From assembly GCA_950097015.1 (NCBI GenBank), contig CATNEN010000003.1:6820001-6884000 (forward strand): a stretch of DNA of 64,000 nucleotides. Direction: 5' to 3'. Both the position numbers and the translations under genes were made by a program. The notes beneath the pieces were generated by a model. That model did no database searches and was not told the DNA's origin. It was given only the letters and a program-made list of their open reading frames with translations. This document shows positions 14,267 through 46,227 of this stretch, one piece after another. The first letter of the stretch is position 1. The number at the start of each line of letters is the position of its first letter. Source of the DNA: Macrostomum hystrix (taxonomy: Eukaryota > Animalia > Platyhelminthes).

Positions 14267-15394
14267 TCACCGCAGTCCGGAGTGTTTTCGAAGCAGCTCT
14301 CTAAGAGAGTTGGCTTCCTCCCTCAGCGAAGCCATCTGGGCCTTCAACACAGCGTTCTCCTTCTCTAGGAAGCTGGCCCTGACCGCAATCTCGTCCTCTC
14401 GGTGCTTGCGGGCGTCGCGCGACTTCTTGGCTGCCTCGTTGTTTCGCTTGCGTCGCTCGAAGTACTTGTTGTCCTTCTGGCTGTCCGGCACTGGGCGCTT
14501 GTCGGGGCGAGACTGTGAGCCAGCGACTGGCGGTGAGCAGCTGCTGCTCTTGCTGCTGCAACTCGCGCCGCTGCTGTTGGTTATCGTTCTGGCGTGGCTG
14601 TGCTGCTGATGCTGATGCTGCTGTGACGGCAGTTGTGGTAGCGGAGGCGGCAGGTGTGACGGAGGAGGCGGTGGCGGCGGCGGCGGCGGCAGCGGAAGGT
14701 TGAGCTGAGCTGGTTGTTGCAGAGTCGACTGTCCGAGACTCTTTGAAACAGCGCCGCCAGCGGATGCTGTGGACAAATGATAGCCAGTGGTCGAGGACAC
14801 GCCTGAGAGACCATCGCCAAGCGGCTGGTGACAGAGCGGCAGATAGGAACCGAACGGCTGTTTCAGCTGGTGATGCTGCTCCAGCATGGCTGCCGTTTGA
14901 TGAGGCATCGATTGCGAAGGCGGAGACTGCAGGTGCTGATGCTGAAGAGCATGCGAATGATTAGTGTGATGCTGCCGGGCATTGCCAGCCGAGTCGTACA
15001 TCATAGGCTGCATGTAGTGTTGTTGTTGTTGCTGCTGTTGCTGCTGCTGCGGATGCTGAAGATGATGCTGATGCGGATGCAGCGGTGTCGGTGACTGGAT
15101 GCTGTAGTCCTGAAATGCAGAACTCAGCATGGATGACTGCAGCTGATGATCATGATGGTGCTGCACTGTGGTCCCGTCGCCATTCCAACTGCTGTTCAGG
15201 TAGCAAGACGCAGTAGCATTGACGTTCAGGTCGGTGTTTAGGTGTCCTGGATTGTACCGGCCCATCAGGCTTCCACAGTAGCCACCCGCGTTGGCAGGCG
15301 GTGACGAGCAGTCTAAGTCTAGCAGATCCTTCTTCACTGCGTTGGCTGTTGAACCAGCCGACGATGAGGTTGGCGTCAGCTTGCTGGTATCCAT
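14267..15394 (-). CDS. PAR-family bZIP transcription factor (HLF/TEF/giant/ces-2-like), 375 aa
   Basis: C-terminal [49 protein letters not shown] plus leucine zipper; Q/H/P-rich N-terminus; single coding exon. Confidence 0.93.
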
Positions 15395-15570
15395 GGCAAC
15401 GAATAACTATAGGACGGGCTGCTGTTGCTCAGAGGACTGCAAGCTGTTAAATTTGAGAACAAATAATTGGGAAACATATTTGACTTGTGTGTGGAAACTA
15501 AGGATGAGATTATGTGCCAGAAATAAGAAGGCCCTTTAACTTCTTGTAGCTGGCATGAAGGGAACACTTA

Positions 15571-23800: not shown

Positions 23801-26800
23801 AGTCCGGCCAGGTAATAGCACGGAGCGGATACAGTCAGCTCAAGAACATGCTTCAAAGCTTTAGTCCATTGTGACTCGTCCAGTGCCCTCTCGTGGTCGC
23901 CGGCGGATGGTAGTGCAGTCTGGCTAAATGCCAGATAGCTGTCAATCACACCTGTGTGTATCTGGCCAATCACCTGGGCATAGAATAGTGGCAAATTGGC
24001 AGACGGAAAACTGCACACAACTGCAAACGCACGGAACAGGCAATCCAGCATAGTGTAGTTGCTGAATCTCGAGCCCATAGACTTGATCACACTCTGCAGC
24101 AATACGGCAATTGTTTGGACGGCCGGTTCCAAGGCTAGCAGCGATACTAGGAAATTGTCGTCTAAGAAGTCTGTACCTTGCTGCCAGGGCATTGTTAGCT
24201 GCGGGTGGAAATTGCGCAAAGAAGATTGTTGGGAGGGAGAAGGCGCAGCGAAGATTGTTGGGAGGGAGAGAAGGCGCAGAGAAGATATGCGGGGGGAGAG
24301 AAGGCGCAGAGAAGATATGCGGGGAGAGAAGGCGCAAAGAAGATATGCGGGGGGGAGAGAAGGCACAGAGAAGATATGCTGGGGGAGAAGGCGCAGAGAA
24401 TATATGCGGGGAGAGAAGGCGCAAAGAAGATATGCGGGGGGGAGAGAAGGCGCAAAGAAGATATGCGGGGGGGAGAGAAGGCACAGAGAAGATATGCTGG
24501 GGGAGAAGGCGCAGAGAAGATATGCTGGGGGAGAAGGCGCAGAGAAGATATCAGGGGGGAGAAGGCGCAGAGAAGATATCAGGGGAGAGAAGGCGCAGAG
24601 AAGATATGCGCGGAGAGAAGGCGCAGAGAAGATATCCTGGGGGAGAAGGCGCAGAGAAGTTTTGCGGGGCAGAAGGCACAGAGATTGTGGGGGAGGAGAA
24701 GGCTCAAAGAAGATTCTCTGGTGGACAAGGGGATCAGAAAGTTGAGGGGGAGAAGGCGCGGAGAATAAGAGGGAGAAGAGAGAAGAGAATATGCATAGAA
24801 GAGGAAAAGAGGGGAGAAGGGAAAGAAGCTGGGAAGAAAAGAGGAAAAAAGCGAGACGGAGAAAAAACAGAGAAAATGATAGATGGGAGACAAATGCTGA
24901 AGAACAGAGAGATACTCAGTGTTTAGTAAAGACACCAGCCAGAAACTCAGGTAAGCAAAAAATGGTAGCTCACCTGATCAACCAGCCGGGTGACGATTCG
25001 CACCAGCAGGTTGAGTCCGTCGGCGCTGACCAGCTCAGCCAGAGCGTACTGATATCGCAGCTCGGTGACGCGAGGCTCCAGAGCGTGCGGACACCACAGT
25101 CGAGGCGTCTCTCTGGCGCGAAACGAGCCGGGCGCAACAGCGAGGGTCTTTAGCAGGCGCAGAAGAGTCACGAGACCTGGCGGACAGTTTGAATGATCTA
25201 AGCAATCCGACCAGGTCTTCAGGCTGGCTAGCAGAGCTGGCAGCTGGTCCAGTGTGTACGGCGGCCTTGTTGCCTGAATGGTGTGAGATGGGTTGAGTAG
25301 AGATAGAGTAAGAGATTGATTGAGCAGAGATAGGGTGAGATTAATAGAGACAAGGTGAGATTAAATTGATTGAAGACAGGGTGACATTGAGTAGAGATTG
25401 TGGGATTGGGTAGATATAGGGTGAGATTGAGTAGATACGGGGTGAGATTGAGTAGATACGGGGTCAGATTGGGTAGAGATAGGGTGAGATTGAGTAGATA
25501 CGGGGTCAGATTGGGTAGAGATAGGGTGAGATTGAGTAGAGACTGGGTGAGATTGGGTAGAGACTGGGTGAGATTGGGTAGAGACTGGGTGAGATTGGGT
25601 AGAGACTGGGTGAGATTGGGTAGAGACTGGGTGAGATTGGGTAGAGACTGGGTGAGATTGGGTAGAGATTGGGTAGAGACTGGGTGAGATTGGGTAGAGA
25701 CTGGGTGAGATTGGGTAGAGACTGGGTGAGATTGGGTAGAGACAGGCTGAGATTGAGTAGAGACAGGCTGAGATTGAGTAAAGACAGGCTGAGATTGAGT
25801 AGAGACTGGCCGAGATTGAGTAGAGACAGGCTGAGATTGAGTAGAGACAGGCCTAAAGGATTTACAAACCTTCAACGGTGCTAGCCAATCAGCAAGCTCC
25901 GACAGTCGACCAGACTTGCCACCACCGCCACCGACTGCGCTGTTGCTGACAACACCGGAGCCCAGCTGCTGCTGCTGCTGAGTCGCAGCCAAATTGCCGG
26001 CTGGTTTTTTTCGTGCAACAGCGCCAGCCACCACAGCCAATAATCTTTCTCCGCAATTGGCAAATAATTTAACGAATTGGTCGCCATCGGCGTAGCGAAA
26101 ACAGGCGGCTAGAATGGCAAGACAATAGCTGCGACTGGCGCTCAGCAGCTTTCGCTGCTGCTGCTGTTGCTGAGCTCGCTGACGCTTAGCGGCCGTTGGA
26201 GCAGAATTTGCGTCTCCATTTTTATTAGCAAACATTTTATTATTAGTTTCTAGAAACGGCAGCAGCACTAGCATGCTCTCTTCTATTAGCAGCAATTCGG
26301 CTAGCCATCGACCAGCCTGTGGCGCGGAGGTCGACATCAGGTAGAGCTCGTGTAGGCTAGCCACAGCCTCACTGCATAGTTCCGCATCCAGAGCCTGCTG
26401 ATTGGCTGCTGAGCCAGTTGCTGTTCGAGCACCGGCCGAAGGTGAGGATGGCGAATTCGGGTTAGAATCGAGTTTATCAACAGCTTCAGCAGCAGCGGAC
26501 GCGGTGGCGTCCAATGACAATCGTTGCAGTTTGTGATGCACCAATAGGCGATCGATGTGGCCCACAGTGACCAGCTTGCAGGTTAGCTGCAGGCCCAGTG
26601 TGGACCATTCAGCCGGTACTGCTGTAGATTTATTGGCTCCGTAATCCTTGTCGTCGGCGTCGTCTGCGTCCTCCGGATCGGGATTCAGTTCCGGACTGAG
26701 TCGGTAGATGATAGCCTGGAAAGAATAATATCTGTTCTAGTAAGTCTTAATTTAAGGATATTTAATATTGCGGATTTGTTTACTAGTTTACTGGCGATGA

Positions 26801-29800
26801 TTAATGGGACATACATTTTAGGATTTTTTCTGGCAGATGTAGTCGAAACTCTATTGTTAGGGATTATAGGCACGTTGTCGAGGGTTTTAGGTACATTGTT
26901 GAGGATTTTAGGTGCATTGTTGAGGATTTTAGGTGCATTGTTGAGGATTTTAGGTACATTGTTGAGGATTTTAGGTACATTGTTGAGGATTTTAGGTACA
27001 TTGTTGAGGATTTTAGGTGCATTTTTGAGGATTTTAGGTGCATTGTTGAGGATTTTAGGTGCATTGTTGAGGATTTTAGGTGCATTGTTGAGGATTTTAG
27101 GTGCATTGTTGAGGATTTTAGGTGCATTGTTGAGGATTTTAGGTACATTGTTGAGGATTTTATGTGCATTTTTGAGGATATTTGGGGTAAATGAATGAGA
27201 ATTGTTGGGGGATATTGTTGAGAATAAAGGGGGCATACTGTTGAGGATTTTTGGGGGAGAAATGAATGAGAATTTTACGGGGTATTGTTAAGGATTAAGG
27301 GCGCATACTATCGAGGACTTTTGGTACATTGTTGAGGATTTTAGGTGCATTTTTGAGGATTTTTTTGGGAGAAATGATTGAGAATTTTAGAGGGATATTG
27401 TTAAGGATTAAGGGCGCATACTGTCTAGGATGTTTTGGTACATTTTGAGGATTTTAGAGTAAATAAAATGATTCAAGGAGGACATTGATGAGGATTTTAC
27501 GAGTAGTAAGTTTTGACGATTATCAAAAGGATTAGAACGCAGATGAAAACTGGCAAAACAGACCTGCATGAGCACCGGTTGAGCAGCCAGGTACTGTACT
27601 CCGTGATCTAAGCTAAGCAGAGCCTCCAACAGTCCGCAGGCGGAATCTCGCACAGTCTGCAGGCCCGGCCTAGGTCGATTCTCGCACACAGCGTGTCGCA
27701 CGCAATCCATCAGTCTGACAGAATTGAAATAGTGATACAGATCCGGATAGGGACTGTAGGGCGGCTGGGTGTGCTCAAAGCAGACACCGGCTGGCAGGCA
27801 TCGGCGTGGATGGCCAATAGATTGGGGCGCGTTTAGATAAGCCAGGCGAATGTCGGCTAGAGCCGAAGACAAGCGTTCAGCTATGGAGGTCAGCTCCTTG
27901 TCTGCCGTAGCTGCTGACAATTGAAGCTGCAGCTGCTGCTGCTGACTGTTCGATAGAGAAGTCGCCGGGTTGCTAACGGCATCGTCATCAGCACTGGCGG
28001 CTGCAGCTGCGGCGGCAGCTGATTCAGCAGCAGCGCGACGTTCTGCCTGTGGCACGGAATAATAAGGTGATTTGAGTAGATTCTATGGCATCTTGTTGAC
28101 TATATAGACAACACATCTATCACTGAATAGATATTCAGATCAGTGAGATTCGACTCTTTGGTATATAGTGAGATTACATTCTTTAGTGGCACTAAATCTA
28201 TTAGAGATTGCACACTTAGTGGGACTAGATCTATTAGAGATTACACACTTAGTGGGACTAGATCTATTAGAGATTACACACTTAGTGGGACTAGATCTAT
28301 AAGAGATTACACACTTAGTGGGATTAGATCTATTAGAGATTACACACTTAGTGGGACTAGATCTATGAGAGATTACACACTTAGTGGGATTAGATCTATG
28401 AGAGATTACACACTTAGTGGGACTAGATCTATTAGAGATTACACACTTAGTGGGACTAGATCTATTAGAGATTACACACTTAGTGGGACTAGATCTATTA
28501 GAGATTACACACTTAGTGGGACTAGATCTATTAGAGATTACACACTTAGTGGGACTAGATCTATAAGAGATTACACACTTAGTGGGATTAGATCTATTAG
28601 AGATTACACACTTAGTGGGACTAGATCTATGAGAGATTACACACTTAGTGGGATTAGATCTATTAGAGATTACACACTTAGTGGGACTAGATCTATTAGA
28701 GATTACACACTTAGTGGGATTAGATCTATTAGAGATTACACACTTAGTGGGACTAGATCTATGAGAGATTACACACTTAGTGGGATTCGATCTATGAGAG
28801 ATTACACACTTAGTGGAACTAGATCTATGAGAGATTACACACTTAGTGGGACTAGATCTATGAGAGATTACACACTTAGTGGGATTCGATCTATGAGAGA
28901 TTACACACTTAGTGGGATTAGATCTATGAGAGATTACACACTTAGTGGAACTAGATCTATGAGAGATTACACACTTAGTGGGATTAGATCTATGAGAGAT
29001 TACACACTTAGTGGGACTAGATCTATGAGAGATTACACACTTAGTGGGATTAGATCTATGAGAGATTACACACTTAGTGGAACTAGATCTATGAGAGATT
29101 ACACACTTAGTGGGATTAGATCTATTAGAGATTACACACTTAGTGGGATTAGATCTATTAGAGATTACACACTTAGTGGGACTAGATCTATGAGAGATTA
29201 CACACTTAGTGGGATTCGATCTATGAGAGATTACACACTTAGTGGGATTAGATCTATGAGAGATTACACACTTAGTGGAACTAGATCTATGAGAGATTAC
29301 ACACTTAGTGGGATTAGATCTATGAGAGATTACACACTTAGTGGGACTAGATCTATGAGAGATTACACACTTAGTGGGATTAGATCTATGAGAGATTACA
29401 CACTTAGTGGAACTAGATCTATGAGAGATTACACACTTAGTGGGATTAGATCTATGAGAGATTACACACTTAGGGGGATTAGATCTATGAGAGATTACAC
29501 ACTTAGTGGGATTAGATCTATGAGAGATTACACACTTAGTGGGACTAGATCTATGAGAGATTACACACTTAGTGGGATTCGATCTATGAGAGATTACACA
29601 CTTAGTGGGATTAGATCTATTAGAGATTACTTTCGATGGAAGTAGAAGTAAAATAAATCAGATTTGTTTTAAAAAAAATTTCTGAGTGGGGCAAAGTTAA
29701 CTCTTATTATAGACACAAAGTACCGGCCATAGATGGTAGTAATGCTACACGCATTTAAATACATTGCTCACCTGCTTAAACTGATGAAATAGCGTCCGAA

Positions 29801-32800
29801 AATCCAGCAAAGATTCGTACAGATGCAGTTTATTTAGCAGGCAGGCCATAGCGGCCACAACCCTAGCCGTGTGCTTGTGATAAAACATGGCCAATAGCCG
29901 CTTGTAGGGCGTGTCAAGCTCCATTCTAGCCAGGCATTTGCGCATGTGAGTCAAATCGTCCTCGCCTAGGACTCGAGGCGGCTCCACGTAACTCTTGCCT
30001 GTGGTGCAAAAACATATCATAATTCATATTTGCATATTCGTTCTGTCTAGCCTGTAAATTCACTTTTCTAAACATATCGGTCAATAGCAATCATAAAAAT
30101 GAAAGACACATTGTCTACGACGAAAAGCCAGATACAAACTTTTTTATTACATTACGACGTATCTGATAATGCTTGTTTCTTAATTTATTACTGTTTTTTT
30201 ACTAAGTAACATTACTTGTTTGCATATTTTCCTCCGGAGTAGGAGTTCTAGTAATATATATTACATAATTATTAAGCTTAGTCCGGTTAGTTATTAAAAT
30301 GTAATTTTCTATACATACCGGCAGGATATCGCTAATTATCTAGTATACAGAAGCCATATAGTTAAACTAGAACTCACCAGAAGTCACAGTCTGTGGCTGG
30401 TTGACGCCACTACTATTAGTAATAGCAGATTCGGCTGGCACACCCAGAAATGCCTCAGCGCCAGCAGCCAATCGTACAGAACTGCTCAAAGCTCGAACTA
30501 CTTGCAGTTTAATAGAAGTAGCCATGTGCTCGGCGGAAAGCAGATCTAATAGCCGATGCTGCACAGATCTGGCCAATAATCTGGCGCTAATCCGCTGGTC
30601 TAGGGTGCACAGCATACCGGCTAAGCTTAATCCGGCCTTCAAATGTCTCATAATAAACGTATTAGCCTCCTGCTGTTGTTGACGCCTAGCGGCTTGCAAG
30701 TCTAGGCCTTCCAGTGTCCAGTCAACCAAGGTGTCCATTGTAGTTTCAAACTCGGCCAAATTAATGCTTTCAACAAAGGCTAGCGCGCCAGGTAAATAGG
30801 TAGGCAACTTTTCTAATTGTTCAATCCATTGCCAATTGTGACTAGCAGGGTCGGCGTAGCGGCCAAGTAGGTCGGCTAGGCGACTAGCGGATTCTTCGCA
30901 GCGTTCCTCATCCTTGGTGTTAATGACGGGCTGGGCAGAATCGTACAGGAGCTTCTTCTCCACCTAAAATGAGAATATGGTTGCAAACATTGTCAATTCG
31001 CTTCCCGCGACTGAAAGTTCAGCTAAGAGTTTCGATAAATGAGCAGTTTGGGGTCCCGAAATAGAGATTTGGTAACGCACCTCGAACGCTGTTAAGCTTG
31101 GATCGGATGGAAATCTCAGCTCTCGCAGTCGACAACGCTCCGGTCTGAATGCCAACGGGAAACCCAACTCGACTTCGGTTAGGGCAAGCGAAGTGGCTTC
31201 CGGTTCGGCAGACAGCAGCTCCTGCTCATCATCGGTGCACCAACTGGCTGCATCGCAGCTGTCGTCGGCTCCAGTATCTTCGGCATCTGCCGTGGCATCG
31301 TCCTGATGCTGCTGATTTGACATCAATTCATTTGGTCGCTTATTGAGCCTAGCGCTGCCAAGGGCTCCAGCAATTAGCGGCGCCATCGGCATCACCGACA
31401 TAGCTGACGATGAGGAAGTCGGCGAACGAGGCCGAGTGTTTTGCTGAAGGCCGCCCCGCCTGCTAGAGAAGTCGTAGGAGCCGCCGCCGCCTCCGCCACG
31501 ATAGCGACTGAGCACAGATTGTTGCACTGGAAGCTGGGGCGGAGGGCCAGAAGTAACAGACGACGTCATGGTTGATGGATGCTGCAGAAGGCCTTGATGA
31601 TGCAGCTGCTGCTGCTGCTGTAGTTGATTTGGAGGAGGCAAAGAGAGTGGCGGAGGCAGAGTCATCTGAAGTTGCTGCTGCTGAGTCATAGGGACTGGAA
31701 ACGATGACTGATGCTGTTGGTGGTACATCTGCTGCTGTTGCTGTTGAAATGCAACCATAGGATTTGGTAGAGACATTGGTGGCGGCATCAATGACTGCTG
31801 AGGTTGAGGCGGCGGTGGCAAAAGCAGAGTCTTATTAGCTGGAGCAGCCGAACCAAACAAGCCCAAGGTCAGGCTGCTATAGGTGCCTCTTATTACTAGC
31901 AGGTCAGTACAGATGTCAGCCAGGGTGCAACTAATGTGGCCGGATCTTTCGTCATATTTCAATTCGCCAATGCGATCAAATGTGGCAGCCTCTGGTCCGC
32001 GTCTGGCAAAAAACTCCACATTGAACTGGGACGGACCAGTCAGGCCAACCATTGGCTCGGCGCGAGGCAATTCGCTGTTTATGGACACTCCAAATGGTAC
32101 AATGCGAGCTTCGCGCAGCCGAACAGTTGGGTTGAATAGAACAGTGTCGCATTGTACTTCCTAAATAGATGTCAGTGTTGGCATTTATATCATTTATAAG
32201 CCAATAATAACCTTGTTCTATTCATTAGAAGTCTCTACAGAGACTTAACTACTAGCCAAAGAGCTGTACACAGGTAATCAGTTGTAATGACTTATAAGCC
32301 TTTCTTAGTAGGCCTAAGCTGTTACTATGATCATATAGTTTATACAATGCTTGTAATATCCTTGGGAGATTCAGATCCCTGGGAGATCAATGTAGCACAC
32401 AAATTAGACTTATCTCAAGATTAGTGTAGACAGTCTAAAGTGGGGTTAATACTTAAATTCCTAGGTATTGGTAATTAAGTGCCATGGAATCAAAGTAGGG
32501 TACAAATTTGACTCCTATATAGTGAAAGAAGAACATTTAAAGTATTGGAGTTTTTTGCTTTCAAAGGCTATATATATATGCTTTCATTCTATCACATAAC
32601 CACAGTAGCCAAAATTATTCATTAGCTTGTGACGAAACGTGTCATGTCATTTTTGTTTTGATTTAGTCTGATGTCTCTTATTTCAATGATAATAAAATAA
32701 CACTAATAATAAGACACACTTCTTGGTAAGTTAGGCTGGCAAATAAAGGAACATTGCTGTAGGATTGAATAATAAAAATTTCATCATGGAACAAGTGGCA

Positions 32801-34288: not shown

Positions 34289-35100
34289 ATTAAAATGACT
34301 TGTAAGTTAGAGCCCTTTTAAATGAATACTATGGGTGATAAACACTTACTAGGCCTAACTTCTATTAGGTAAACAAGTAAGTGAATATCTAATAAACACA
34401 CTTCGAACAAATAAAGGGTATTTTTGCACTTTGCCTAGCTCAAAATACTATATAGGCATATTATGGGAAAACGGCAGAGCTAAGCCTTCTTATGATAGCG
34501 AAAATGATTAAATAAAATTGAAATCGGGCACTGAAACTAGCTAGAAGTAAATCTGTATCGAAGTTTCATTTAGTAATGACACAAAATAATGACATAGCTA
34601 GTCGCTAGACACTGCATAGATGTCAGGCGAGAAATGTTTAATCAAACGATGTTGAAAGATACTATTTTTAGAAGGTATAACTACAGCCTTGTGCTGCTGA
34701 TGTTGGCTCCGTGTAAATTTCCTTAAACTATGTATTTTCTTAAAGTAATACCAAAGATGGCAATTCTGAATAATGAACCGTGCAGTTTTAACTTTGCGAG
34801 AATCGTGTCTACGAAAATCTAAAACCGAAAACGAGAGAGCCTGAGAGTTTGAATGCTTTTATCCAAAATAACAACACATAGTCATATCTTATCATTTCGT
34901 TTCTTTAAATTATTTACCAGCAACACAAATAATTACCAACTTTTAAATATAAAAAATTTATGCCTAATAACTTATACCATGCAGCCTGGTTTCTCGGCTC
35001 TCCGCTCTCGGTAGTGTTTTGTGTTTTGTGAGTGCTGTGAGGGTTGTAACTTATCAGCCGAGTGATGTGTGAAGTCGGCCATAAGCCTTTCTTTAAATAC

Positions 35101-35906
35101 TGTCGTAGGGCTCCTTACTGATATCCTACAGCTGCCACTAAGTTGTCGTAGGCCTCCTTCTTAACTCCCACTGCTTTCACCAATTTGTCGTAGGCTCTCT
35201 CCTCTTTGGGTTTAAATATCACCGATACTCTTTTATTAAATATTAACAATTGCTTATTTCACACCTTGAATTAACCTTTGAAATAACTCTTAATTTCCTT
35301 TGTCTATGACTTAGTTATTCTTCATAGGCTAGCTATGTATCCTCTTATTGCATATGCATATATTGTTTAACTTGGCCAGATAGGCTGCTTTCCTTCCAAA
35401 ATTGGTAGCGTTCTCACGAGTGTCCGAGCGGCAAGACACTTCTTCCTCTCCTTACTTACTCACAACTGTCTGGCTCTCTGGTTTGTTCCCAGTCTTTCAA
35501 GGCTTCCAATGGACTGAAGTTGCCCAACTTTGCACACAGTGCTATTCCACCAATCAGGATTTTACCCTCAGCTCTTTAGTTTTACACTCTACTACGGCTT
35601 TTTATAACTATCTCCTTCTTTATTCTTTCGAATGTTCACCAACTTGTGTATTATCACAGACCTGCTTTTCTCCTTCTCTCTAAAATAATTGAATTCAAAC
35701 ACTTTGAGATTTATTCTCCTTTGTTTTCTCAGAACTGGGCACGGGGCACCGGTTGGGGCTTTTTGGGTTAAACTGCGTCTATATTTATAGCAAAAATTGG
35801 GGCGGTTGGTGCAACACATTAAAACAAACCAAAAATATAAAACTGAGGAAAAGCATTTGGCGGGAATTCAACTTTAAGAATATACGATAAATTTGGGCCT
35901 GCCTCA
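35101..35906 (-). repeat. 3' LTR (806 bp)
   Basis: Apparently identical to 43279-44084; TATAAATA 35782-35789 and AATAAA 35232-35237 on the minus strand. Confidence 0.96.
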
Positions 35907-36092
35907 ACTGGCTTCCCCTATATACATTTTGGAATAAGACACGCATGACAAAATTTATAATAACAATAGCCTACACAAAATAAAACGGATAGCAAAATAG
36001 CATACAAAAATAAACGGGTAGCAGAAAAATTTTTTAGAAAAGTAAAATACAACACCAAATAAAACGATTAAAACACGATCAAATTGTCCTTT

Positions 36093-37280
36093 TTAAGAAA
36101 AATAACAGTCTTCAGGCAATCTCTCGTTGCGGGGCCAACCGACCGTACTCGCCATCCACCTCAACTCAATGTTGAGGGGGATGCGGTTTACCGGCAGTGG
36201 ACTGCGGTTGATTACTTTTCGCGCATATTGTACAGCCCTTTTCCAGGCGGCTATACAATGGCTCCGGGCGAACTTCTCGCATAGAACACGCATAGCGGAA
36301 TAGATTGCGGCCCGCTGCGGATATCGCCGATCATTGTTGTACAGTCCGGCATCCAGGATGTAGCCCTTCAGGTGACGGATGAGCCGCGTGTAATGCTCGT
36401 GTTGGGCCTGAGGAATTTCCGCCATTATTCGGGCGAATTCTTCCTGATTCTCCGCGGGCTCCATATCGATGTCCTCATCTGATTCTGGTCGCTGCTGCGG
36501 CTGTGGCGACTGCTGCAGTGGCTGCTCTTGCTGCAACGGCTGCTGCGACGGCTGCAGCTGCAGCTGCTGCTGTGATGACTGCGGCTGTGCCGGCTGCGAG
36601 GACTGCGAGGGCTGCGGCTGCGACTGCTGTGACGACTGCGAGGGCTGCGACTGCGACTGCTGTGACGACTGCGGCTGCGGCTGTTGCTGGAAGTCTGTCC
36701 TGTATTGGTACTGGATTGGTACCCTCTGCGCCTTTGGTGCTATGTGCCGACCCTTAGGCGGTGGCTGCGGCTGCGGAATCGGCTTCGGCGCTATCGACCG
36801 CTGTCCGGCAGCTCGTCGACCTGGCTCCTGGCTTGGTGTACTGATGACTTTGATGGTTCTGGCCACCTCCGTGGGCATATTTTGAGCCTTCTCCAATGCT
36901 GCCACTGGTGCGATTGACTGCTGTCGGAGTTGGTTTACCCTTGCGGTGGCATCGAGGAAAACCGGTAGCCTTGAACTCGGCAGTTTCCTCTTACTCGCGA
37001 TTTCTTCTTGCATCGTGGTGGCAGCTCGCTTCTGGCTGTTTGCCCTCGATTGCTGACCAACCATAGACGGTTGCGTCCTCTGCCGCAATGGCGCCTCGAG
37101 TTCTTCCGACTCATCGATGATCACTTGAATAATATCTTCTTCGTCATTATCGACTCTTTTCTCCTTATCCTGCTTCACTCTATCCGGCTCAACATTCTCA
37201 TTATCCGAGAAATCTACAGTCACAGCTTCTAACAGCTTCTCAAACTCACTTACGCTCATAGCTTCACGATCTTGCTCCAT
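36093..37280 (-). CDS. Retrotransposon ORF3 of unknown function (395 aa from first ATG), not env-like
   Basis: Intact ORF between pol and the 3' LTR, same strand; acidic N-terminus, Q/P/S-rich middle, ordered-looking C-terminal ~110 aa; no signal peptide or TM segment. Confidence 0.8.
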   Translation of the reverse strand: MEQDREAMSVSEFEKLLEAVTVDFSDNENVEPDRVKQDKEKRVDNDEEDIIQVIIDESEELEAPLRQRTQPSMVGQQSRANSQKRAATTMQEEIASKRKLPSSRLPVFLDATARVNQLRQQSIAPVAALEKAQNMPTEVARTIKVISTPSQEPGRRAAGQRSIAPKPIPQPQPPPKGRHIAPKAQRVPIQYQYRTDFQQQPQPQSSQQSQSQPSQSSQQSQPQPSQSSQPAQPQSSQQQLQLQPSQQPLQQEQPLQQSPQPQQRPESDEDIDMEPAENQEEFARIMAEIPQAQHEHYTRLIRHLKGYILDAGLYNNDRRYPQRAAIYSAMRVLCEKFARSHCIAAWKRAVQYARKVINRSPLPVNRIPLNIELRWMASTVGWPRNERLPEDCYFS

Positions 37281-37354
37281 TTCGGAATTTGCTTGCTTTG
37301 TCAATATGACTTCTCTCTCACTCTGTATGTTTGTTTGCCTTCCCAGGGCACTGG

Positions 37355-37435
37355 TTTATATAGGCGTGAGGCTGACGCGCATCATTGTGTCTCAGATTTC
37401 ATTGGGCTATACTGGCTTATTCTTAATCCTATTGG
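37355..37435 (-). promoter_or_regulatory. Internal promoter for ORF3 (2x CCAAT + TATA)
   Basis: CCAAT at 37431-37435 and 37401-37405 and TATATAAA at 37355-37362 (all minus), 75 nt above ATG 37280. Confidence 0.55.
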
Positions 37436-37554: not shown

Positions 37555-40500
37555 CTAGATCTGCAAATTCCCTAGTATACTGAACACGGTGGCAAGCCTC
37601 TGCAAATAGCCTTCAAACCTCGCGGGGGGTCTGATTTGTCTGCGCGGACGGCTTGTCACTCCTTCCCTTTCTTCATTCTGTACAATGTACATGCCTCCTT
37701 CTGAGGTGGCTGTTGCCAGACCCTCAGCTGTCCCTTCGCTTTCGCTCTCCTCTTCACTGCTCGTAGCCTCAGGCTCGGTGTGTGATTCATCCTCAACTTC
37801 TATCTCAGCTCCTAGTTCCAAATCTTCTCCATTAATTTCACTTGGGTTTTCTCTAAAATGACATTGCCATTCTAATCTGTCTTCTTCCTCTTCGGATTCA
37901 TCTTCCTCTGTTAGAACAAATCTTCCCTTCTCCTTCGGCTGGCTTCCCCTAACTTTGACCTCTGTCTTCTTAGCTTTCTTCTCTGGTGCGGCCTGGCTTC
38001 CCCTAATTAATTCCTCTTGGGTTGAATTAGGCACAATAGTTATGTTGTCTCTATGGACAATCATGATATTGCCTACTAACTGTCCTTGCTCCTCTTTTTG
38101 CACTCGAAATACTACCTCTGATATTTGCTCTATTACTCTGAAGGCTGATCTCTTTTTCCTATGAAATTTGTGAGATTCCTCACTGTCCAACTGTGGATTA
38201 TTGATCAATACTAGACTTCCAACTGGGACTGTCTTAGGCAATTTGCTGTTTTTCGCAGACTCTTGTCTGTTACTGACAACCTTCTCCAATTTTCTTTTGA
38301 CAATGTCTCTCGCAATCTTCAGCCGTTCGGCATGTTCTGTCACATAAGATGGATAACTGGCGAATGACTTTGGTTGGCTGATTTGACTGTCCATAGGCAA
38401 TACTGCTTCCCGTCCAAATAACAGGTAGTGGGGAGTAAAGCCTGTGGTTTTGTTTACACTAGTGCGGACAGCAACTAATGCAGCTGGGATCATAAGGTCC
38501 CAATCACTGTGATCTTTCTCAATGAGACAAGTTACTATTGATTTAATTTGCTTGTTAAATCTCTCCACCAATCCATTGCTTTGGGCATGGTAGGGTGTTG
38601 TAAACGTATGCTTCACGTTATACATTTCGCAAAAAGCTTTGAACTGCTTGCTAGCGAATGCCTTGCCATTGTCTGTGTGTAACCACTGACATTGCCCATA
38701 CTCTGCGAAGATTCTTTCCTGTAAGATTTTGATCACAGTATCTGACTTTTGATTTCTAGTTGGGAATGCAAACGGATATCGAGTGGTGCTATCCACAATA
38801 GTTAGGACATACTTGTGCCCTCTTTTGCTCTCTTTGGATAGTGGTCCTATAAAATCGACATGCAGGCGGTGAAAAGGTTCACTTATAGGGAACGATTGCA
38901 CTGGCGCCTGAATCGGGTTTCCTCTCTTGCTTTCCAGGCACGGAATACACTCTGCGATATGAGCTTCCACTGCTTTGACCAATCCTGGTCTCCAAAATCT
39001 CTGCCTGACACGTTGAATTGTTTTATCGCGTCCCAAATGTCCTGCTAGTGGGCTATCATGCAGATCGCTGAGAACTAGCTTATCCAAGGACTGGGGCAGT
39101 ACAACTTTCCAACTGTCATCTTCGCTAATGATTAGCATCTCATTCTCTACCTTCATATCCTCAAAGGATTTCCTCATCTTCTTCAATTCTGGGCTGACAA
39201 TTTCAGGTAACTGGGGATTGTTCTCTCCTGATTTCTTCCATTCAATTAGCACTTTAATTACTGGGTCATCTCTTTGTGACGCAATAATTTGCTCTCGTTT
39301 CAATGGGCTGGGTAAGAAATCGGTCAATAACTTCTCGCACTTGCTACTTGTTGCTTGCAGCATATTCTCACTCTCAATAGGATTAAATTCTTCAGGAACT
39401 GGACTCGGAAGCGGAATGCTGGAGTCATGTTCAAGTTCACTGGGAATTCTCACCTCTCCTTGTCCTGAGATAGTAGACTGGATCCTGCTATTGGGATCTA
39501 ACGTCTTTTTCTCTCCTTCACTTAGGGCAGTCTGGGGCTGTGTCAAGCTACATGAGCTATCATTAGCCTTAACTTCCTGTCCTGACTCTTCCATTACACT
39601 GCAGCTTTGCACTATCGGCTCAATAACTTGCTCTGCTTCAGGGACATCAGCTGGTCTTCTTGACAGACTGTCAGCGTTCTGGTTCTTTGCACCGCTTCTG
39701 TGTTCTATATCGAACAAGAATTCGTTTAGGCGCTCAACCCACCGACCAAGAATTCCTTGAGCTTCTGTTTGCCTTAACAGCCAAATTATCGCCTTATGAT
39801 CCGTTCTTGCCAAAAACTTCTTGCCTAACAGGTAGAAACGGAAATGCCTCATGGCATCCACTAGGGCTAAGAGTTCTTTTCTAGTGATAGGGTAGCGTTT
39901 TTCCGACTCTTTCATAGCTCGGCTGAAATAAGCTATGGGTCTCTCTATGCCATCTGATTGGATCTGGCTAAGTACAGCGCCAATACGGCTATCACTTGCA
40001 TCGGTATCCAATACCATCTTCACCTTCTCATCATCCACAAATTCGGGATACGCTAAGACTTCAGTGGACATCATCCGGTTCTTTAGCGACTCAAACGCTT
40101 CGTCATGCTCTTTGCTCCATCTCTCTTGAAAGTTCTTAATTCCTTTCCTTGTTAGCTGGAAAAGGGGATGGGCAGCTTCTGCATAATTTTTAATGAAGCG
40201 GCTATAGTAATTACATAGACCAAGGAAACTGCGTAGCTCCTTCACATCTTTTGGCTTCGGCCAGGTCTTGATTGCTTCAATCTTCGTCTCATCCGTACGG
40301 ATACCTTCTGTACTGATCACATGTCCTAAGTACTTTAACTCTCTATGAAAAAGGTTACATTTCTTTGGCCTTAGCTTCAATCCTGCGATTATTAATCTCT
40401 TGAACACTTCCTTTAGATGGGAAAGGTGGTCATTAAAGTTCTTCGAATAGGTAACTATATCGTCTATATACGACATAGCAAATTGATGTTGAATCCCTAA

Positions 40501-42318
40501 AAGTACAAGATTCATGAGCCTCTGGAAGGTTCCTGGGGCATTGGACAAACCTTGCGCCATAACCTCATACTCAAACTGGCCTCGGGTTAAAGTAGAGAAG
40601 GCGGTCATGAACTTGTGTTCTTCCTTTATTGGCACCTGCCAATAACCAGAATTCAAATCGAGACTACTAAAATATTGACTACCAGATAAGTAGGTGAAAG
40701 TCTGATGAATGTTAGGAAGCGGATACGGAACATAGTTCACCTTCGAGTTTAACACTCTGAAATCACTTACAATCCGTATGGATCCGTCCTTTTTCGGCAC
40801 AATGACTAGTGGTGTAGAATAAGTTGAATAACTGGGCCTGATTAAATTTTTAGCCAACATGTCATCCAACTGTGTGTCGACTTGCTTTTGGAGATGGGGT
40901 GGTATTCTCCTAGTTGGGATCCTCACGGGAGTCTCATCCTTCAGTGAGATCTCATGTGTGATCAGATGGGTTAAACCCATATCCAACTCATTCTGTGAAA
41001 AAGCTTCACGATGCTCCTTCATCAATTCGATGACTGATTTCCTCTGGTCATCGGTAAGATCTTGACCAATATTAACTTCATTAATCCAGGCATCTTCCAC
41101 AGTTTGTGTCTGGTTGACTCGTCCGGTAGGTTGACTGACTATTTCCCTTTCGGCTTCGAAATATTTCAACTCACTTGCCTTCACTGGTTTGGCTAGGCCT
41201 ACCAATGTTGACTTCGACAGCTTCACCTCAACTGGATTGTTATTCACAATCTCCACAATGGCGGAACCTTCTCGCATTGTGACTAGAGTGGGAGCCATCT
41301 CGACTGTCAATTCTTTGGCTTTTACGCCTTCGCCAATCATACTCACTGTCATAGGTGTTCCAAAATTGCACTCGGCATCTCTCGCCAATCTCACTGGGAT
41401 TCTCAATGCACTATTTGCAGGAATCACTACTTTCTCCTGAGTATACACTCTGCATACTTTTACAGGTAGATGAGTGAACTGCATAGGAATGCTTGCTCCT
41501 TCATTTAGAATCAACATGCCTTTAGCAAGATGAATGCTATCACAATGTCCTAGGAAAAATTCCATTCCTAAGATATTGTCGCTCTCATGTCCACACAAAA
41601 GGAATTCTATTTCTATCTGGATGTCTCCGAATCTAACTGGAATACAACTCTCGCCTTCCAATTGTACTCTGGTTCCGTCGAAAGTAGAGACTCGCTTGTC
41701 TGTACTTCTTATCTGTTCTGGCTTAAGTAATTTTGACCAAATAGATTTGCTCAAAAAGCTGTTCCTAGCCCCTGTGTCTAGGATAAAATTAATTTCCTGA
41801 TTCTTAAATTTTCCTACAATTACAGCTTCAAATCCTTCAGGTTTAATAAGTTCTAGTTTAGAATTAGAAACAAATACTTTGCGTTTGTTCTCACGTGTCC
41901 TTGAGTATTTTCCAGATGTTGCGGCGGCTGATCTCGGTGCTGATACTTCGGAAGCTGGTTCCTCCAGGGTTGACATGCAGGGGGCTGACGCAATGGTTGC
42001 TGACACAGATGCCGCTGGGGCTAACGCAATGGGTGCTGACGCAGATGGTGCTGACGCAATGGGTGCTGACGCAGATGGTGCTGACGCAATGGGTGCTGAC
42101 GCAGATGGTGCTAACGCAATGGGTGCTGACGCAGATGGTGCTGACGCAAATGGTGCTGACGCAAATGGTGCTGATACTCGATACTTCGGCTGCTTCTGTG
42201 CATTACACAATCTCGACGACTGGGCTGGGTATCGCCGATTCTTAGAGGCCTGCGATTCGAATCGGGGTTTACTAGAGGGGCGCGGCCTCGACTCTCGTCC
42301 CTCGATATTCAGTTTCCC
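37555..42318 (-). CDS. pol: Pol polyprotein (protease, RT, RNase H, integrase), entered by -1 frameshift
   Basis: LDTGA protease; YIDD RT; DTDASD..IGAVL RNase H; H..H..C..C and DDE integrase; frame open from the GGGAAAC slip site. Confidence 0.96.
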   Translation of the reverse strand, partial: GKLNIEGRESRPRPSSKPRFESQASKNRRYPAQSSRLCNAQKQPKYRVSAPFASAPFASAPSASAPIALAPSASAPIASAPSASAPIASAPSASAPIALAPAASVSATIASAPCMSTLEEPASEVSAPRSAAATSGKYSRTRENKRKVFVSNSKLELIKPEGFEAVIVGKFKNQEINFILDTGARNSFLSKSIWSKLLKPEQIRSTDKRVSTFDGTRVQLEGESCIPVRFGDIQIEIEFLLCGHESDNILGMEFFLGHCDSIHLAKGMLILNEGASIPMQFTHLPVKVCRVYTQEKVVIPANSALRIPVRLARDAECNFGTPMTVSMIGEGVKAKELTVEMAPTLVTMREGSAIVEIVNNNPVEVKLSKSTLVGLAKPVKASELKYFEAEREIVSQPTGRVNQTQTVEDAWINEVNIGQDLTDDQRKSVIELMKEHREAFSQNELDMGLTHLITHEISLKDETPVRIPTRRIPPHLQKQVDTQLDDMLAKNLIRPSYSTYSTPLVIVPKKDGSIRIVSDFRVLNSKVNYVPYPLPNIHQTFTYLSGSQYFSSLDLNSGYWQVPIKEEHKFMTAFSTLTRGQFEYEVMAQGLSNAPGTFQRLMNLVLLGIQHQFAMSYIDDIVTYSKNFNDHLSHLKEVFKRLIIAGLKLRPKKCNLFHRELKYLGHVISTEGIRTDETKIEAIKTWPKPKDVKELRSFLGLCNYYSRFIKNYAEAAHPLFQLTRKGIKNFQERWSKEHDEAFESLKNRMMSTEVLAYPEFVDDEKVKMVLDTDASDSRIGAVLSQIQSDGIERPIAYFSRAMKESEKRYPITRKELLALVDAMRHFRFYLLGKKFLARTDHKAIIWLLRQTEAQGILGRWVERLNEFLFDIEHRSGAKNQNADSLSRRPADVPEAEQVIEPIVQSCSVMEESGQEVKANDSSCSLTQPQTALSEGEKKTLDPNSRIQSTISGQGEVRIPSELEHDSSIPLPSPVPEEFNPIESENMLQATSSKCEKLLTDFLPSPLKREQIIASQRDDPVIKVLIEWKKSGENNPQLPEIVSPELKKMRKSFEDMKVENEMLIISEDDSWKVVLPQSLDKLVLSDLHDSPLAGHLGRDKTIQRVRQRFWRPGLVKAVEAHIAECIPCLESKRGNPIQAPVQSFPISEPFHRLHVDFIGPLSKESKRGHKYVLTIVDSTTRYPFAFPTRNQKSDTVIKILQERIFAEYGQCQWLHTDNGKAFASKQFKAFCEMYNVKHTFTTPYHAQSNGLVERFNKQIKSIVTCLIEKDHSDWDLMIPAALVAVRTSVNKTTGFTPHYLLFGREAVLPMDSQISQPKSFASYPSYVTEHAERLKIARDIVKRKLEKVVSNRQESAKNSKLPKTVPVGSLVLINNPQLDSEESHKFHRKKRSAFRVIEQISEVVFRVQKEEQGQLVGNIMIVHRDNITIVPNSTQEELIRGSQAAPEKKAKKTEVKVRGSQPKEKGRFVLTEEDESEEEEDRLEWQCHFRENPSEINGEDLELGAEIEVEDESHTEPEATSSEEESESEGTAEGLATATSEGGMYIVQNEEREGVTSRPRRQIRPPARFEGYLQRLATVFSILGNLQI
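42255..42318 (-). other. -1 programmed ribosomal frameshift signal
   Basis: G GGA AAC (42318-42312) right before the gag TGA; the -1 frame is the pol frame; downstream GAGGGACG/CGCCCCTC stem whose loop can pair with CCCCGATTC. Confidence 0.85.
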
Positions 42319-43208
42319 TGATATCGGTACTGCTGCTGCTGCTGTGAGCTCTTGCAGTACTTGGCAATATGCCCAACTTTGTTACAGTTAAAACATGTCG
42401 GCGGAGGCCTCGACTGTTGCTGCGGCTTCAGGTACGTCTTCGGCTGCATGAGCGGCTGAGGTGTTACTCTCTGGCATTCAGCCTTCCTTCTTTCCTGAAT
42501 CAGGTCTTCAATCAGCTTCTTCTGCTTATTGATTTCATACTTCTGCCTCTCGATGGTCTCCTCCATCTTCTTATTCCGATCCTCGTCGAATTGCTCGTCT
42601 TTAACAACTCGAACTCCACTCTTGTGTGACATATGCCACGCTGCTTCGATGCGTCTCAACATCCTTCTAGCCTCTTGCAGGCTGGCTGGCTGTGCAAATA
42701 TTAACTTTTCCCTAGTGTCGGAAGGGATTCTCGCTCCTTTAATGAACTGCTCTACTACTTCCTCCTCCCTTTGTTCTGCATTCATATTGGGGAATGCTTG
42801 CGCGGACAACTCAATCAAGGCATCTGCGAATGAGTCAACGGGCTCATTCCTCCCTTGCATTCTACCTCTAAATTCCTCCCTAAACTCGGCTGAGCTTCCT
42901 AGTCTTCCAAACCTTTCTACAAGTCTTTCCTTCAACTCCTCATACGTTAAGTCTTCTGGCAGATTCAACCGCTGAACGGCTGCAAATGCGGTCGCGAGGT
43001 CTAGATTAGCTAACAGCTCATTCTTCCTATGTTCATCCTGTTCTAATCCTTCATTGTCGCATCTCTGATCAAATGCTTTGAGCCAAATTCTGATGTCCTG
43101 GCTAGGTGTGTACTTTTGGATCTTTACGTGTCTCATGGGTCCTAATTCTAGTCTATTTCTTAATTCTTCTGCTAACAAGCCAATAGCATCATTAATTCCT
43201 GCGGCCAT
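42309..43208 (-). CDS. gag: Gag with CCHC zinc knuckle, 299 aa
   Basis: Capsid-like EFRGRMQGRNEPVDSFADAL; CFNCNKVGHIAKYC. Confidence 0.95.
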   Translation of the reverse strand: MAAGINDAIGLLAEELRNRLELGPMRHVKIQKYTPSQDIRIWLKAFDQRCDNEGLEQDEHRKNELLANLDLATAFAAVQRLNLPEDLTYEELKERLVERFGRLGSSAEFREEFRGRMQGRNEPVDSFADALIELSAQAFPNMNAEQREEEVVEQFIKGARIPSDTREKLIFAQPASLQEARRMLRRIEAAWHMSHKSGVRVVKDEQFDEDRNKKMEETIERQKYEINKQKKLIEDLIQERRKAECQRVTPQPLMQPKTYLKPQQQSRPPPTCFNCNKVGHIAKYCKSSQQQQQYRYQGN

Positions 43209-43257
43209 ACCTTTATCTAACTTTCAAACTGACTGTGTGCTTTAGCTGGATTCCAAT

Positions 43258-43275
43258 CCTTTACCGCTGACACCA
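43258..43275 (-). other. Primer-binding site, tRNA-Leu-like (TGGTGTCAGCGGTAAAGG)
   Basis: Starts with TGG 3 nt after the 5' LTR end; TGGTGTCAG complements the ...CUGACACCA end of tRNA-Leu(CAG/CAA) types. Confidence 0.8.
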
Positions 43276-43278
43276 AGT

Positions 43279-44084
43279 TGTCGTAGGGCTCCTTACTGAT
43301 ATCCTACAGCTGCCACTAAGTTGTCGTAGGCCTCCTTCTTAACTCCCACTGCTTTCACCAATTTGTCGTAGGCTCTCTCCTCTTTGGGTTTAAATATCAC
43401 CGATACTCTTTTATTAAATATTAACAATTGCTTATTTCACACCTTGAATTAACCTTTGAAATAACTCTTAATTTCCTTTGTCTATGACTTAGTTATTCTT
43501 CATAGGCTAGCTATGTATCCTCTTATTGCATATGCATATATTGTTTAACTTGGCCAGATAGGCTGCTTTCCTTCCAAAATTGGTAGCGTTCTCACGAGTG
43601 TCCGAGCGGCAAGACACTTCTTCCTCTCCTTACTTACTCACAACTGTCTGGCTCTCTGGTTTGTTCCCAGTCTTTCAAGGCTTCCAATGGACTGAAGTTG
43701 CCCAACTTTGCACACAGTGCTATTCCACCAATCAGGATTTTACCCTCAGCTCTTTAGTTTTACACTCTACTACGGCTTTTTATAACTATCTCCTTCTTTA
43801 TTCTTTCGAATGTTCACCAACTTGTGTATTATCACAGACCTGCTTTTCTCCTTCTCTCTAAAATAATTGAATTCAAACACTTTGAGATTTATTCTCCTTT
43901 GTTTTCTCAGAACTGGGCACGGGGCACCGGTTGGGGCTTTTTGGGTTAAACTGCGTCTATATTTATAGCAAAAATTGGGGCGGTTGGTGCAACACATTAA
44001 AACAAACCAAAAATATAAAACTGAGGAAAAGCATTTGGCGGGAATTCAACTTTAAGAATATACGATAAATTTGGGCCTGCCTCA
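43279..44084 (-). repeat. 5' LTR (806 bp)
   Basis: Copy of 35101-35906. Confidence 0.96.
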
Positions 44085-44792
44085 ATACAATGTTCACCCG
44101 TACTTTAAGTACACATTTAAAAAAGTTACCGTATTACCTTATTAAAAATGCATTTTAAACTAACTGGAAAAAGTTATTTATTTGCTATACCAAATCTTTT
44201 TGGATAAACTTCGTTTTTAATATGTATGTAATGTATGTATATGTACTAAGCCCTAAGCCAAATTTGCATTGTAGTCGTCACGTGTCAGACTTTGACCCTT
44301 TGTATTCAAATGGCTCCTTGGCTGAGTGGGCTCCCGTTTGTATTCTATTTAATTTCGATTATAGATTCTTCAAATAGTTAGGCCTTGTCAATGTCTTAAA
44401 AGTGATGTACACAGTACATGTAACATATTTCCTTGGCTTAACTTTTTAAACACAACATTCAAGACATTTGAATAAAATAATTGAAGTATTATATAATTAT
44501 ATTTTATTGTTAAGCAGTGTAGGCCTTCTGGACTTCATTCTAGGCACATTTCCAACAGTGGCATATTATGGGCTTTCCCAATCTAATTTTTCAAACACAT
44601 TTTAACACACCTAATTACCCTAGCAAAAAAAATCAAAGGGGGACCAAGGGACAAAAAAGGAAGGCATGAAGAAGAATAAAAAGGGGAGAGAAAAAGAGAG
44701 CAATTGAGAGCAAACTAAGTTGTAAATAGAGCAAAAACTAAGTCGGACGGCGGGCTAAGATTTGGGAGGTTGCACATGTATGGTCTATGGTA

Positions 44793-46227
44793 GTCTATGG
44801 CCACCCCTTGTTGCACCCCAGTTTTTTGGGCACGCCTTGCAAGCAAAGTGAGATATTTTTTTAAAGCTAAATGAGAACCATATTGAAAATGAAGGGGTGG
44901 TTTTGCAAAAATACAAAATGATGTAGGCCTACTATTGGAAACTATATATTTGGAAAAGGATAGGCAGGAAAACAACAGAACAAGCAGTACAAAAATTGTT
45001 AATAATGTTATAAGCATTCAAATAAAGGGTTGCATGTTGATATGCTGAGCAAACTTTCAAGTGCAGTGGAGCTCCTAGCCTGCAATATTGTGTGGAGTAA
45101 TGATATGCAGCAATTCTCTTCCAAGCCTACATCAACATGTATAGCCAATTATCTCGTGTCATGCCTGGTGGGCAAACCTTTTCCTAAGCCACGATTGTGG
45201 GCTCTACAAGGCGACGCTTGATCTCACTCTTAAGAGCATTGTGCACCATCTCCACGGTATTCAAAAAGGGTGAGTATGCTGGTAAAATTTGCTGACAAAT
45301 AAGATCCTCAAACTGCTCAGGTATCACAATCCCTTGGTGAAAATTTGGACCATCAACAATGAGAATAACTCGTCTGCCAGGAGCATCAGCCTGTATGATG
45401 TTAGCCAGTTCCAAAATAAACTGCTTAAATCTCTCTTGTGTCTGACCACCTTGCTGCAGTGTACAGTGGACAAGACCCAGTTCAGATGACACTGCTAAGC
45501 ACATTGTCATGTTGGGACCCCTCTGCATTACCACTGTTTGTCACATAGGCTGGCCAACTCTTGCTCAACCCTGCATCCTTCTTGTCTATAGGTTGTAGCC
45601 AGTCTCAGATAAACACAGCCAGGTCATTCACAGGCAGTCCCGTCATCATCATATAGCATAGTTGTGCCTTGCTTCTATTACATCCTGGGTATTCATAGCA
45701 AGCCTCACTTTGGCATCCTTGGTGGCGAATGTCAGTCAGATAAGCATAGAGTTTGTTGCTCCAGCAATGGGGAATTCAGTGATGCCGGCTTTTGTGGCAA
45801 CTCCAAAGTCAGTTTTCTCTTCACATCCATCAGAGTAACTAGGATTTTGCTCAACTCTGCTCAAATCTACTCAACTGCATTCCAAATTTCAGCATCCATT
45901 TTTGTTGACCCCGGCTTGTGGCCACTGCATTGCAATGCATGGATCTCACCAGTAGCTGCGTAGAGACTCCATATCCGATAGGCCATCTTCTTGTTCAGTT
46001 TAAGGATTTTGGACGCAGTCAAAATTGAGTAACCATCTTTGACGGCATTGACCAGGCGCTCTCTATCCTCTATCCTATCTCTATCCTCATTGCTTGTTAA
46101 ACGCAGTTGATTTGCCATAGCCCAGCCTTTGTTTTCAATATGGTTCTCACTTGGCTTTAAAAAATTTCTCACTTTGCTTGCAAGGCATGCCCAAAAAACT
46201 GGGCTGAAGCGAGGGGTGGCCATAGAC
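44793..46227 (-). mobile_element. Decayed Tc1/mariner (IS630-superfamily) DNA transposon
   Basis: ~97-bp imperfect TIRs (44793-44889 / 46132-46227, both starting GTCTATGGCCACCCC); TA on the left flank. Confidence 0.88.
45184..46118 (-). pseudogene. Disrupted Tc1-like transposase
   Basis: HTH-like N-terminal piece ending in a stop at 45867; DDE_3 piece LIVDGPNFH...LPAYSPFLNTVE in another frame. Confidence 0.85.

Follow-up and report, generated by a model that had tools for sequence, protein, structure and literature searches.

The U5 end of an intact Ty3/Gypsy LTR retrotransposon, found in the 64-kb stretch of DNA analyzed here (hereafter the window), consists of three units, each made of the 9-mer CCTACGACA, 3 nt and a tRNA-Leu-like 18-mer, and two of these units lie inside both LTRs. 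Unit number and order vary in the family to which the element belongs, and the array is probably a dynamic, relic record of primer sites. We give an even chance to an account in which the element is primed at its outer site, likely by a tRNA-Leu, and the inner units are relics captured from the primer through faulty second strand transfer. The extra units are likely leftovers of copying errors and not working alternative start sites.

The element and its surroundings

The element spans 8984 bp of the minus strand (44084-35101), with gag, pol and a third ORF all open. Its two LTRs stand in direct orientation and are identical, each 806 bp long with TG at the 5' end and CA at the 3' end, and the element is a young jumping gene. 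It is assigned to Ty3/Gypsy by its LTRs and TSD, its domain order, a PBS next to the 5' LTR and a PPT next to the 3' LTR, and its relatives were identified by similarity matches: the best match of the RT-RNase H region is a Macrostomum lignano protein (84%), and a member of a protein cluster matches the element's protein at 63% over 1344 aa. From these matches, the element likely comes from a flatworm resembling Macrostomum. The main features are the following.

44085-44088, minus strand: TSD GTAT, upstream copy
43279-44084, minus strand: 5' LTR, TG...CA, enclosing units 1 and 2; same sequence as the 3' LTR
43410-43415 (starting at 43415), minus strand: AATAAA, putative polyadenylation signal, upstream of the array
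42309-43208, minus strand: gag ORF, first ATG to stop, encoding a zinc knuckle of CCHC type
37555-42381, minus strand: pol ORF, -1 frame, with protease, RT, RNase H and integrase in Ty3/Gypsy order (Pfam)
36093-37355, minus strand: third ORF, located between pol and the 3' LTR (420 aa, stop to stop)
35907-35919, minus strand: polypurine tract followed by AGT, which mirrors the U5-end gap ACT
35101-35906, minus strand: 3' LTR, with units 1 and 2 inside, stopping at terminus 3
35123-35194, minus strand: units 1 and 2 within the 3' LTR
35097-35100, minus strand: TSD GTAT, downstream copy

A 5-bp TSD (GTATT) was discarded, as the LTR would then lose its TG start. A slippery-type heptamer, G GGA AAC (42312-42318, minus strand), lies just 5' of the gag stop and is likely a -1 ribosomal frameshift site, pol being in the -1 frame. 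The protein of the third ORF is acidic and then Q-rich, and Pfam gave nothing for it at E 0.05. Within pol, a 15-bp in-frame tandem repeat (ASAP-type, 41984-42174) lies in the 5' part, ahead of the protease.

Short terminal extensions of cDNA are trimmed by integrase. Since the AGT after the polypurine tract mirrors the ACT gap, the cDNA of this element likely carries 3-nt extensions at both ends, and integrase would likely remove them. The position of the AATAAA upstream of the array would place the array within U5, so that the element RNA would have a single array copy, in its 5' leader.

A remnant of a Tc1/IS630-type DNA transposon adjoins the element (44793-46227), with inverted ends of about 100 bp and with DDE_3 and weak HTH matches in separate frames. 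The window also holds EMAP/EML-like (3389-8969), bZIP factor (14267-15406) and Virilizer-like (17873-32160) host genes, the introns of which are filled with many different minisatellites.

A serial array of termini and tRNA-like sites

An earlier note on this DNA had described three in-register units of terminus, gap and PBS-like sequence, 42-43 nt apart, and every coordinate proved right; the positions likewise confirm that the two inner units lie in both LTRs, 3' of the AATAAA, and that the TSD adjoins the outermost terminus only. The 9-mer occurs exactly six times in the 64-kb window, three times per LTR end, with plus-strand starts at 43364, 43322 and 43279 in the 5' LTR region (spacing 42 and 43 nt) and at 35186, 35144 and 35101 in the 3' LTR, where the third terminus continues into host DNA. 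The units of the 5' copy are laid out as follows; the tRNAs named are the stand-ins described in the next section.

43361-43372, minus strand: terminus 1 (CCTACGACA) and gap AAT
43343-43360, minus strand: site 1 (inner), TGGTGAAAGCAGTGGGAG; 15/18 to a tRNA-Leu 3' end, with A at position 6 (stand-ins L124, L129)
43319-43342, minus strand: 12-nt purine-rich spacer, terminus 2 and gap ACT
43301-43318, minus strand: site 2 (inner), TAGTGGCAGCTGTAGGAT; 15/18 to a tRNA-Leu(AAG/TAG)-type 3' end (L168, L172, L178); TAG start
43276-43300, minus strand: 13-nt spacer, terminus 3 (the integrated end) and gap ACT
43246-43275, minus strand: site 3 (outer; PBS of this copy), 18-mer TGGTGTCAGCGGTAAAGG; predicted duplex with stand-in L123

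LTRs stopping at the inner termini would measure 763 and 721 bp. TRF reports the array with a period of 42-43 and about 80% matches. When all 127,964 18-mers on both strands were compared with three tRNA-Leu-type ends, at least 14/18 matches were reached by four, namely the two inner sites of each LTR, and the resemblance of the inner sites to tRNA-Leu ends is beyond chance.

Among the three units of the window, 1 of the 12 columns of terminus and gap varies, against 19 of the 30 columns of sites and spacers (Fisher p 0.0017; 0.024 against the sites alone), a comparison to be read with the fact that the CCTACGACA motif is what revealed the array in the first place. Measured against the decay rate of the sites, the excess conservation of the termini falls short of significance (p 0.07), and recombination at the termini would also homogenize them. 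A special RNA fold of the array was considered and dropped, since 169 of 200 shuffles fold equally well (z 0.90), and predicted accessibility is alike at the three sites (0.45, 0.35 and 0.33).

Predicted pairing with tRNA-Leu and the site that primed this copy

Both inner units are present in the 3' LTR, and this copy was therefore primed at the outermost site. The argument is independent of any tRNA model, because the U5 of both LTRs, copied from the RNA 5' end starting at the primer, holds units 1 and 2.

Pairing was predicted with stand-in tRNAs, which come from viruses and prokaryotic bins and not from the host, and the match of site 3 to them is partly circular because the retrieval pattern was built from site 3. 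This pattern gave 142 loci, 65 of which are tRNAs according to ARAGORN (21 Leu, 34 Thr, 6 Ser, 2 Met and 2 Cys), and pairing was scored for 18 of the 65. Where site 3 has AAA, all 65 tRNAs have a 1-nt gap, and ARAGORN recognized no tRNA at the 43 loci where the gap is 2-3 nt; the bulge is thus not a tRNA feature. Among the 18 tRNAs scored, the first nucleotide of the sites suits the Leu stand-ins better than those for Thr, Ser, Met and Cys, and the primer is, judging from sequence, likely a host tRNA-Leu.

With a Leu(CAA)-type stand-in, site 3 is predicted to pair perfectly over 13 nt, to open a 3-versus-1-nt internal loop and then to pair with the T arm, for about 24 bp in total. The predicted duplex over 30 nt reaches -43.4 kcal/mol for site 3, -27.2 for site 1 and -26.7 for site 2, so that with these stand-ins the inner sites would bind more weakly by about 16 kcal/mol; over 18 nt the difference is smaller (-28.5, -24.2 and -23.0 kcal/mol, respectively). 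The perfect run from the CCA end extends over 13 nt at site 3, 6 nt at site 1 and 1 nt at site 2, whose TAG start mispairs with CCA at the second nucleotide of the primer end. For an 18-nt tRNA fragment, the long bulged PBS (43246-43275) would be a poor partner at the fragment's far end.

Each inner site is identical to tRNA-Leu ends at 15/18 positions, compared with 11/18 between each inner site and site 3; sites 1 and 2 share 12/18. Both inner sites lack the 2-nt bulge of site 3, and their likeness to the tRNA stops after nt 18 (2/8 and 1/8 at nt 19-26), whereas that of site 3 continues to about nt 28. The three sites are each nearest to a different Leu acceptor type, told apart by a single letter (A, G and T at position 6). 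Hence the different tRNA sites of the earlier note persist in a narrower form: all are Leu-type, and the types differ by one letter.

That note had also offered, as one of two readings, a multi-primer system in which priming at the inner sites gives shorter LTRs able to integrate. In the form considered here, the inner sites, mainly site 1, would additionally be primed by other tRNA-Leu isoacceptors, with all units retained in the 5' leader. Site 1 does retain TGG and 15/18 matches, its predicted -24 kcal/mol over 18 nt comes near the -28.5 of site 3, and the termini are spared in this copy. However, the copy itself was primed at site 3, the inner duplexes are predicted to be weaker, and site 2 mispairs with the CCA end. 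These findings do not support such a system, which we regard as quite improbable also in view of the family data given next.

Variation of the array within the family

The element is present in eight public runs (two studies, one of which may have yielded the window itself, and two coded organisms), and five of them (X1-X5), all consisting of contigs, were compared. The three-unit form of the window is spanned by single contigs in X3 (record 13, 43305-43419; also record 9, 43240-43329) and X5 (record 28, 43305-43419), and an assembly artefact was discarded as an explanation because single contigs in these other runs bridge it. Unit number and order, which the earlier note had proposed to check, both vary among the contigs of the five runs. 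Single-unit members, recognized by an 84-nt skip, occur in X3 and X5; site 2 is skipped (42-nt skip) in X4; U5 runs straight into site 2 (loose end at 43356) in 5/5 runs compared; site 2 is placed upstream of site 1 in X1, X2, X3, X4 and X5; and it is repeated in X1, X2 and X4 as well as in X3 (record 11). Three of the alternative arrangements occur in both studies. Site 2 recurs with its TAG start in 5/5 runs compared and in several arrangements, which is poorly explained by pure decay; at 43304, within this site, most of the X1 depth differs from the window in one of two contig listings.

The inner termini are altered in some family copies (43324, 43325 and 43367), only at letters that differ between the U3 and U5 ends. 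The invariance of terminus and gap that had been claimed therefore stands for the terminus in this copy and for the 3-nt length of the gap, and fails for the family contigs and for the gap letters (AAT, ACT and ACT in units 1, 2 and 3). The altered termini retain CCT-n-C-n-n-CA, the letters common to the U3 end, which together with the occurrence of single-unit members speaks for inner-site priming. Against it, no change of an inner site towards the tRNA was found among the contigs listed, the site-1 variant at 43350 being another mismatch. Furthermore, long flanks end at 43279 only among the matches listed (three contigs in X3, one in X4), and none was seen at 43322 (terminus 2) or 43364 (terminus 1) among the 24 of 124 and 23 of 46 loose ends listed, a weak result since the junctions expected from single-unit copies are also absent among them; in reordered arrays, besides, a terminus that follows site 2 may have further units of the same copy beyond it. 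Among the flanks listed at 43279, the last letters are ATAC or ATAG, a hint of some target preference. One X3 contig of 968 nt leaving terminus 3 has a depth of 55.9, matching the element interior, and the flank seen in X3 resembles the window's own (35069-35100); the insertion site may be repeated or unevenly amplified.

At the outer site, position 6 (43270) carries T, G or A across runs, the three letters of the Leu stand-ins, part of this variation stemming from sister families, and in a single X1 contig 2 nt of the bulge are missing (43261). Contigs with an unrelated U5 (loose ends behind 43281, 43286 and 43293-43294) and contigs with an unrelated leader (loose ends before 43241, 43248 and 43251) carry the same bulged outer site, which suggests that the bulge likely predates the array. 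The stepwise record of primer switching suggested in the earlier note is borne out as far as the array reads as a record, and "switching" is too strong a word because none of the sites has departed from the Leu type and the outer one seems to predate the inner ones.

Proposed origin of the inner units

We propose that the inner units arose by capture of primer copies. First, the 3' LTR, which holds both inner units and ends at terminus 3 followed by the TSD, indicates that the minus strand began downstream of them. Second, the outer site is predicted to pair over 13 nt with tRNA-Leu, to bulge and to re-pair across the T arm. Third, the last 18 nt of plus-strand strong-stop DNA are copied from the primer tRNA. 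Because of the bulge in the element's own site, nt 14-18 of this copy would find no match in register, and the loose 3' end might then re-anneal 21-22 nt upstream in U5, from where it would re-copy spacer, terminus and PBS and so add one unit of 42-43 nt. Given this anatomy, outer-site priming of the next round would fix the new unit in both LTRs. Template switches between the repeated termini could subsequently add, drop and reorder units, and sites out of use, no longer corrected against the tRNA, would decay. A U5 stretch upstream of terminus 1, CGGTGAT (43392-43400, minus strand), is similar to the final letters of the tRNA copy and might represent the landing site of the proposed jump, an older decayed unit or a chance likeness.

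Several observations bear on this proposal. The inner sites are free of the bulge, match the tRNA at 15/18 positions and lose the likeness at nt 18, from which they are likely mis-transferred copies of the primer tRNA. The letters at position 6 and the 2-nt loss from the bulge are what correction from the primer would give, the loss being known from one contig. The multiple PBSs of HIV-1 forced onto a non-cognate primer (PMC1084362) are a further point in favour. In the other direction, termini and gap are better kept than the remainder of the units in the window copy and site 2 recurs with its TAG start, both of which count against this account, and no clear case of microhomology was seen for the jump of 21-22 nt.

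Plain duplication would leave relics too. Here a bulge-free 18-nt PBS together with the U5 end would have been duplicated by slippage or recombination and then diverged, the outer site gaining its bulge later. This also predicts that each site is nearer to the tRNA than to the other sites; tandem duplication is common in this DNA, where TRF lists 95 rows in the window, and HIV-1 MAL offers a natural partial PBS duplication, as described in part of PMC3185550. Nevertheless, the bulged outer site in contigs with unrelated U5 or leader suggests that the bulge is older than the array, and the end of tRNA likeness at nt 18 in the inner sites, compared with about nt 28 in the outer one, also counts against such a history. 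We consider plain duplication somewhat unlikely, yet a serious rival.

The recurrence of site 2 with TAG in all five runs compared, and its repetition in some copies, could instead reflect a selected role other than priming, such as sponging 3' tRNA-Leu fragments, recruiting extra tRNA or providing a DNA or RNA signal (site 2 contains a CAGCTG palindrome). The inner sites are in register with an 18-nt fragment and the outer site is not. Moreover, according to the portion of PMC12853362 used here, which also serves as our background on these fragments, 3'-tRFs act at the PBS to repress LTR elements and tolerate some mismatches, and Drosophila gypsy has a second tRNA site that does not prime, as part of PMC1635307 describes. 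Extra sites in the 5' leader, however, could equally add silencing targets, single-unit members persist, and the region folds no better than shuffles (z 0.90), so that a selected role appears very doubtful.

Capture through faulty strand transfer, with the units as relics, thus remains our preferred reading. It is tempting to go further and to see in the array a self-written, reorderable log of primer tRNAs, in which a bulged PBS captures 18-nt copies of whichever tRNA-Leu served as primer and some units are still used as alternative ends for priming and integration or act as sponges for 3' tRNA fragments. This stronger form is unlikely; if true, it would give LTR elements a direct route to new primer sites.

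Searches outside the window and significance

A 17-nt pattern gave 119 loci in metagenomes, of which 7 had more than one core motif and none an array; BLAST against the element returned one short, isolated match without an array (L101), which we read as chance. No relatives of Pol were found in viral contigs, and neither the array pattern nor the outer-site pattern matched any genome or viral contig. A tandem-site pattern hit 7 loci in viral contigs, all low-complexity coding repeats, and was dropped.

LTR elements account for 21% of the genome of M. lignano (part of PMC5730564), and how LTR elements change their primer tRNA is, according to part of PMC10886601, not understood in detail. A young family with one to three or more units is natural material for asking whether new primer sites come from primer copies and whether spare sites are used. 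There is also a consequence for annotation: placing the LTR end at the first PBS-like match would shorten this LTR by 43 or 85 bp. If the units are only relics, the family offers a neat record of reverse-transcription errors of limited reach.

Comparison with known systems

No natural terminus-plus-PBS array inside an LTR was found in the literature searched, which was mostly open-access, without Repbase reports or supplements. The element shares the CA end, the short gap, the site matching a tRNA 3' end, the 4-bp TSD and the PR-RT-RH-IN order with the canonical Ty3/Gypsy U5-PBS with a tRNA-Leu primer, as presented in part of Kojima 2024 (PMC10886601). Whereas the canonical arrangement given there has a single PBS outside the LTR, here two further units lie inside both LTRs and their number and order are variable. 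The Helenus, Ajax and Cassandra TRIMs, as far as the same source treats them, also carry a tRNA-related sequence in the LTR that does not prime; they are, however, non-coding and hold a sense, tRNA-derived Pol III promoter, while here antisense 18-mers sit in an autonomous, fully coding element and ARAGORN found no tRNA genes in the window. The "two PBSs" of an Anopheles copia family are, in the relevant part of PMC3212995, different copies with different sites.

The 5' and 3' PBSs of Drosophila gypsy and the multipartite PBSs of Ty1 and Ty3 resemble the array in having more than one tRNA site, of which one primes, but in the part of PMC1635307 drawn on, the additional sites pair with different regions of the one tRNA, lie elsewhere and are not serial copies of the junction. 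In this element all three sites match the same 3' 18 nt of the tRNA, with the outer one alone reaching the T arm, and they would therefore compete for it.

HIV-1 with a dual PBS was reportedly the subject of Li et al. in 1997. When forced onto a non-cognate, badly fitting primer, HIV-1 gives rise to viruses with multiple PBSs, as described in part of PMC1084362, so that misfit between primer and site goes together with several PBSs for different tRNAs; those viruses arose in laboratory culture and are likened to our element by their multiple PBSs only, whereas the array described here is natural and fixed in the LTR. The 23-nt insertion of HIV-1 MAL and subtype A is likewise a natural, tolerated PBS duplication, but according to the parts of PMC3185550 and PMC11181671 used, it is partial, lies downstream of the PBS and outside the LTR, and has no repeated integrase terminus. 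Multiple PBSs are thus already known as a phenomenon, and the unusual part of the present case is a natural, variable array within an LTR.
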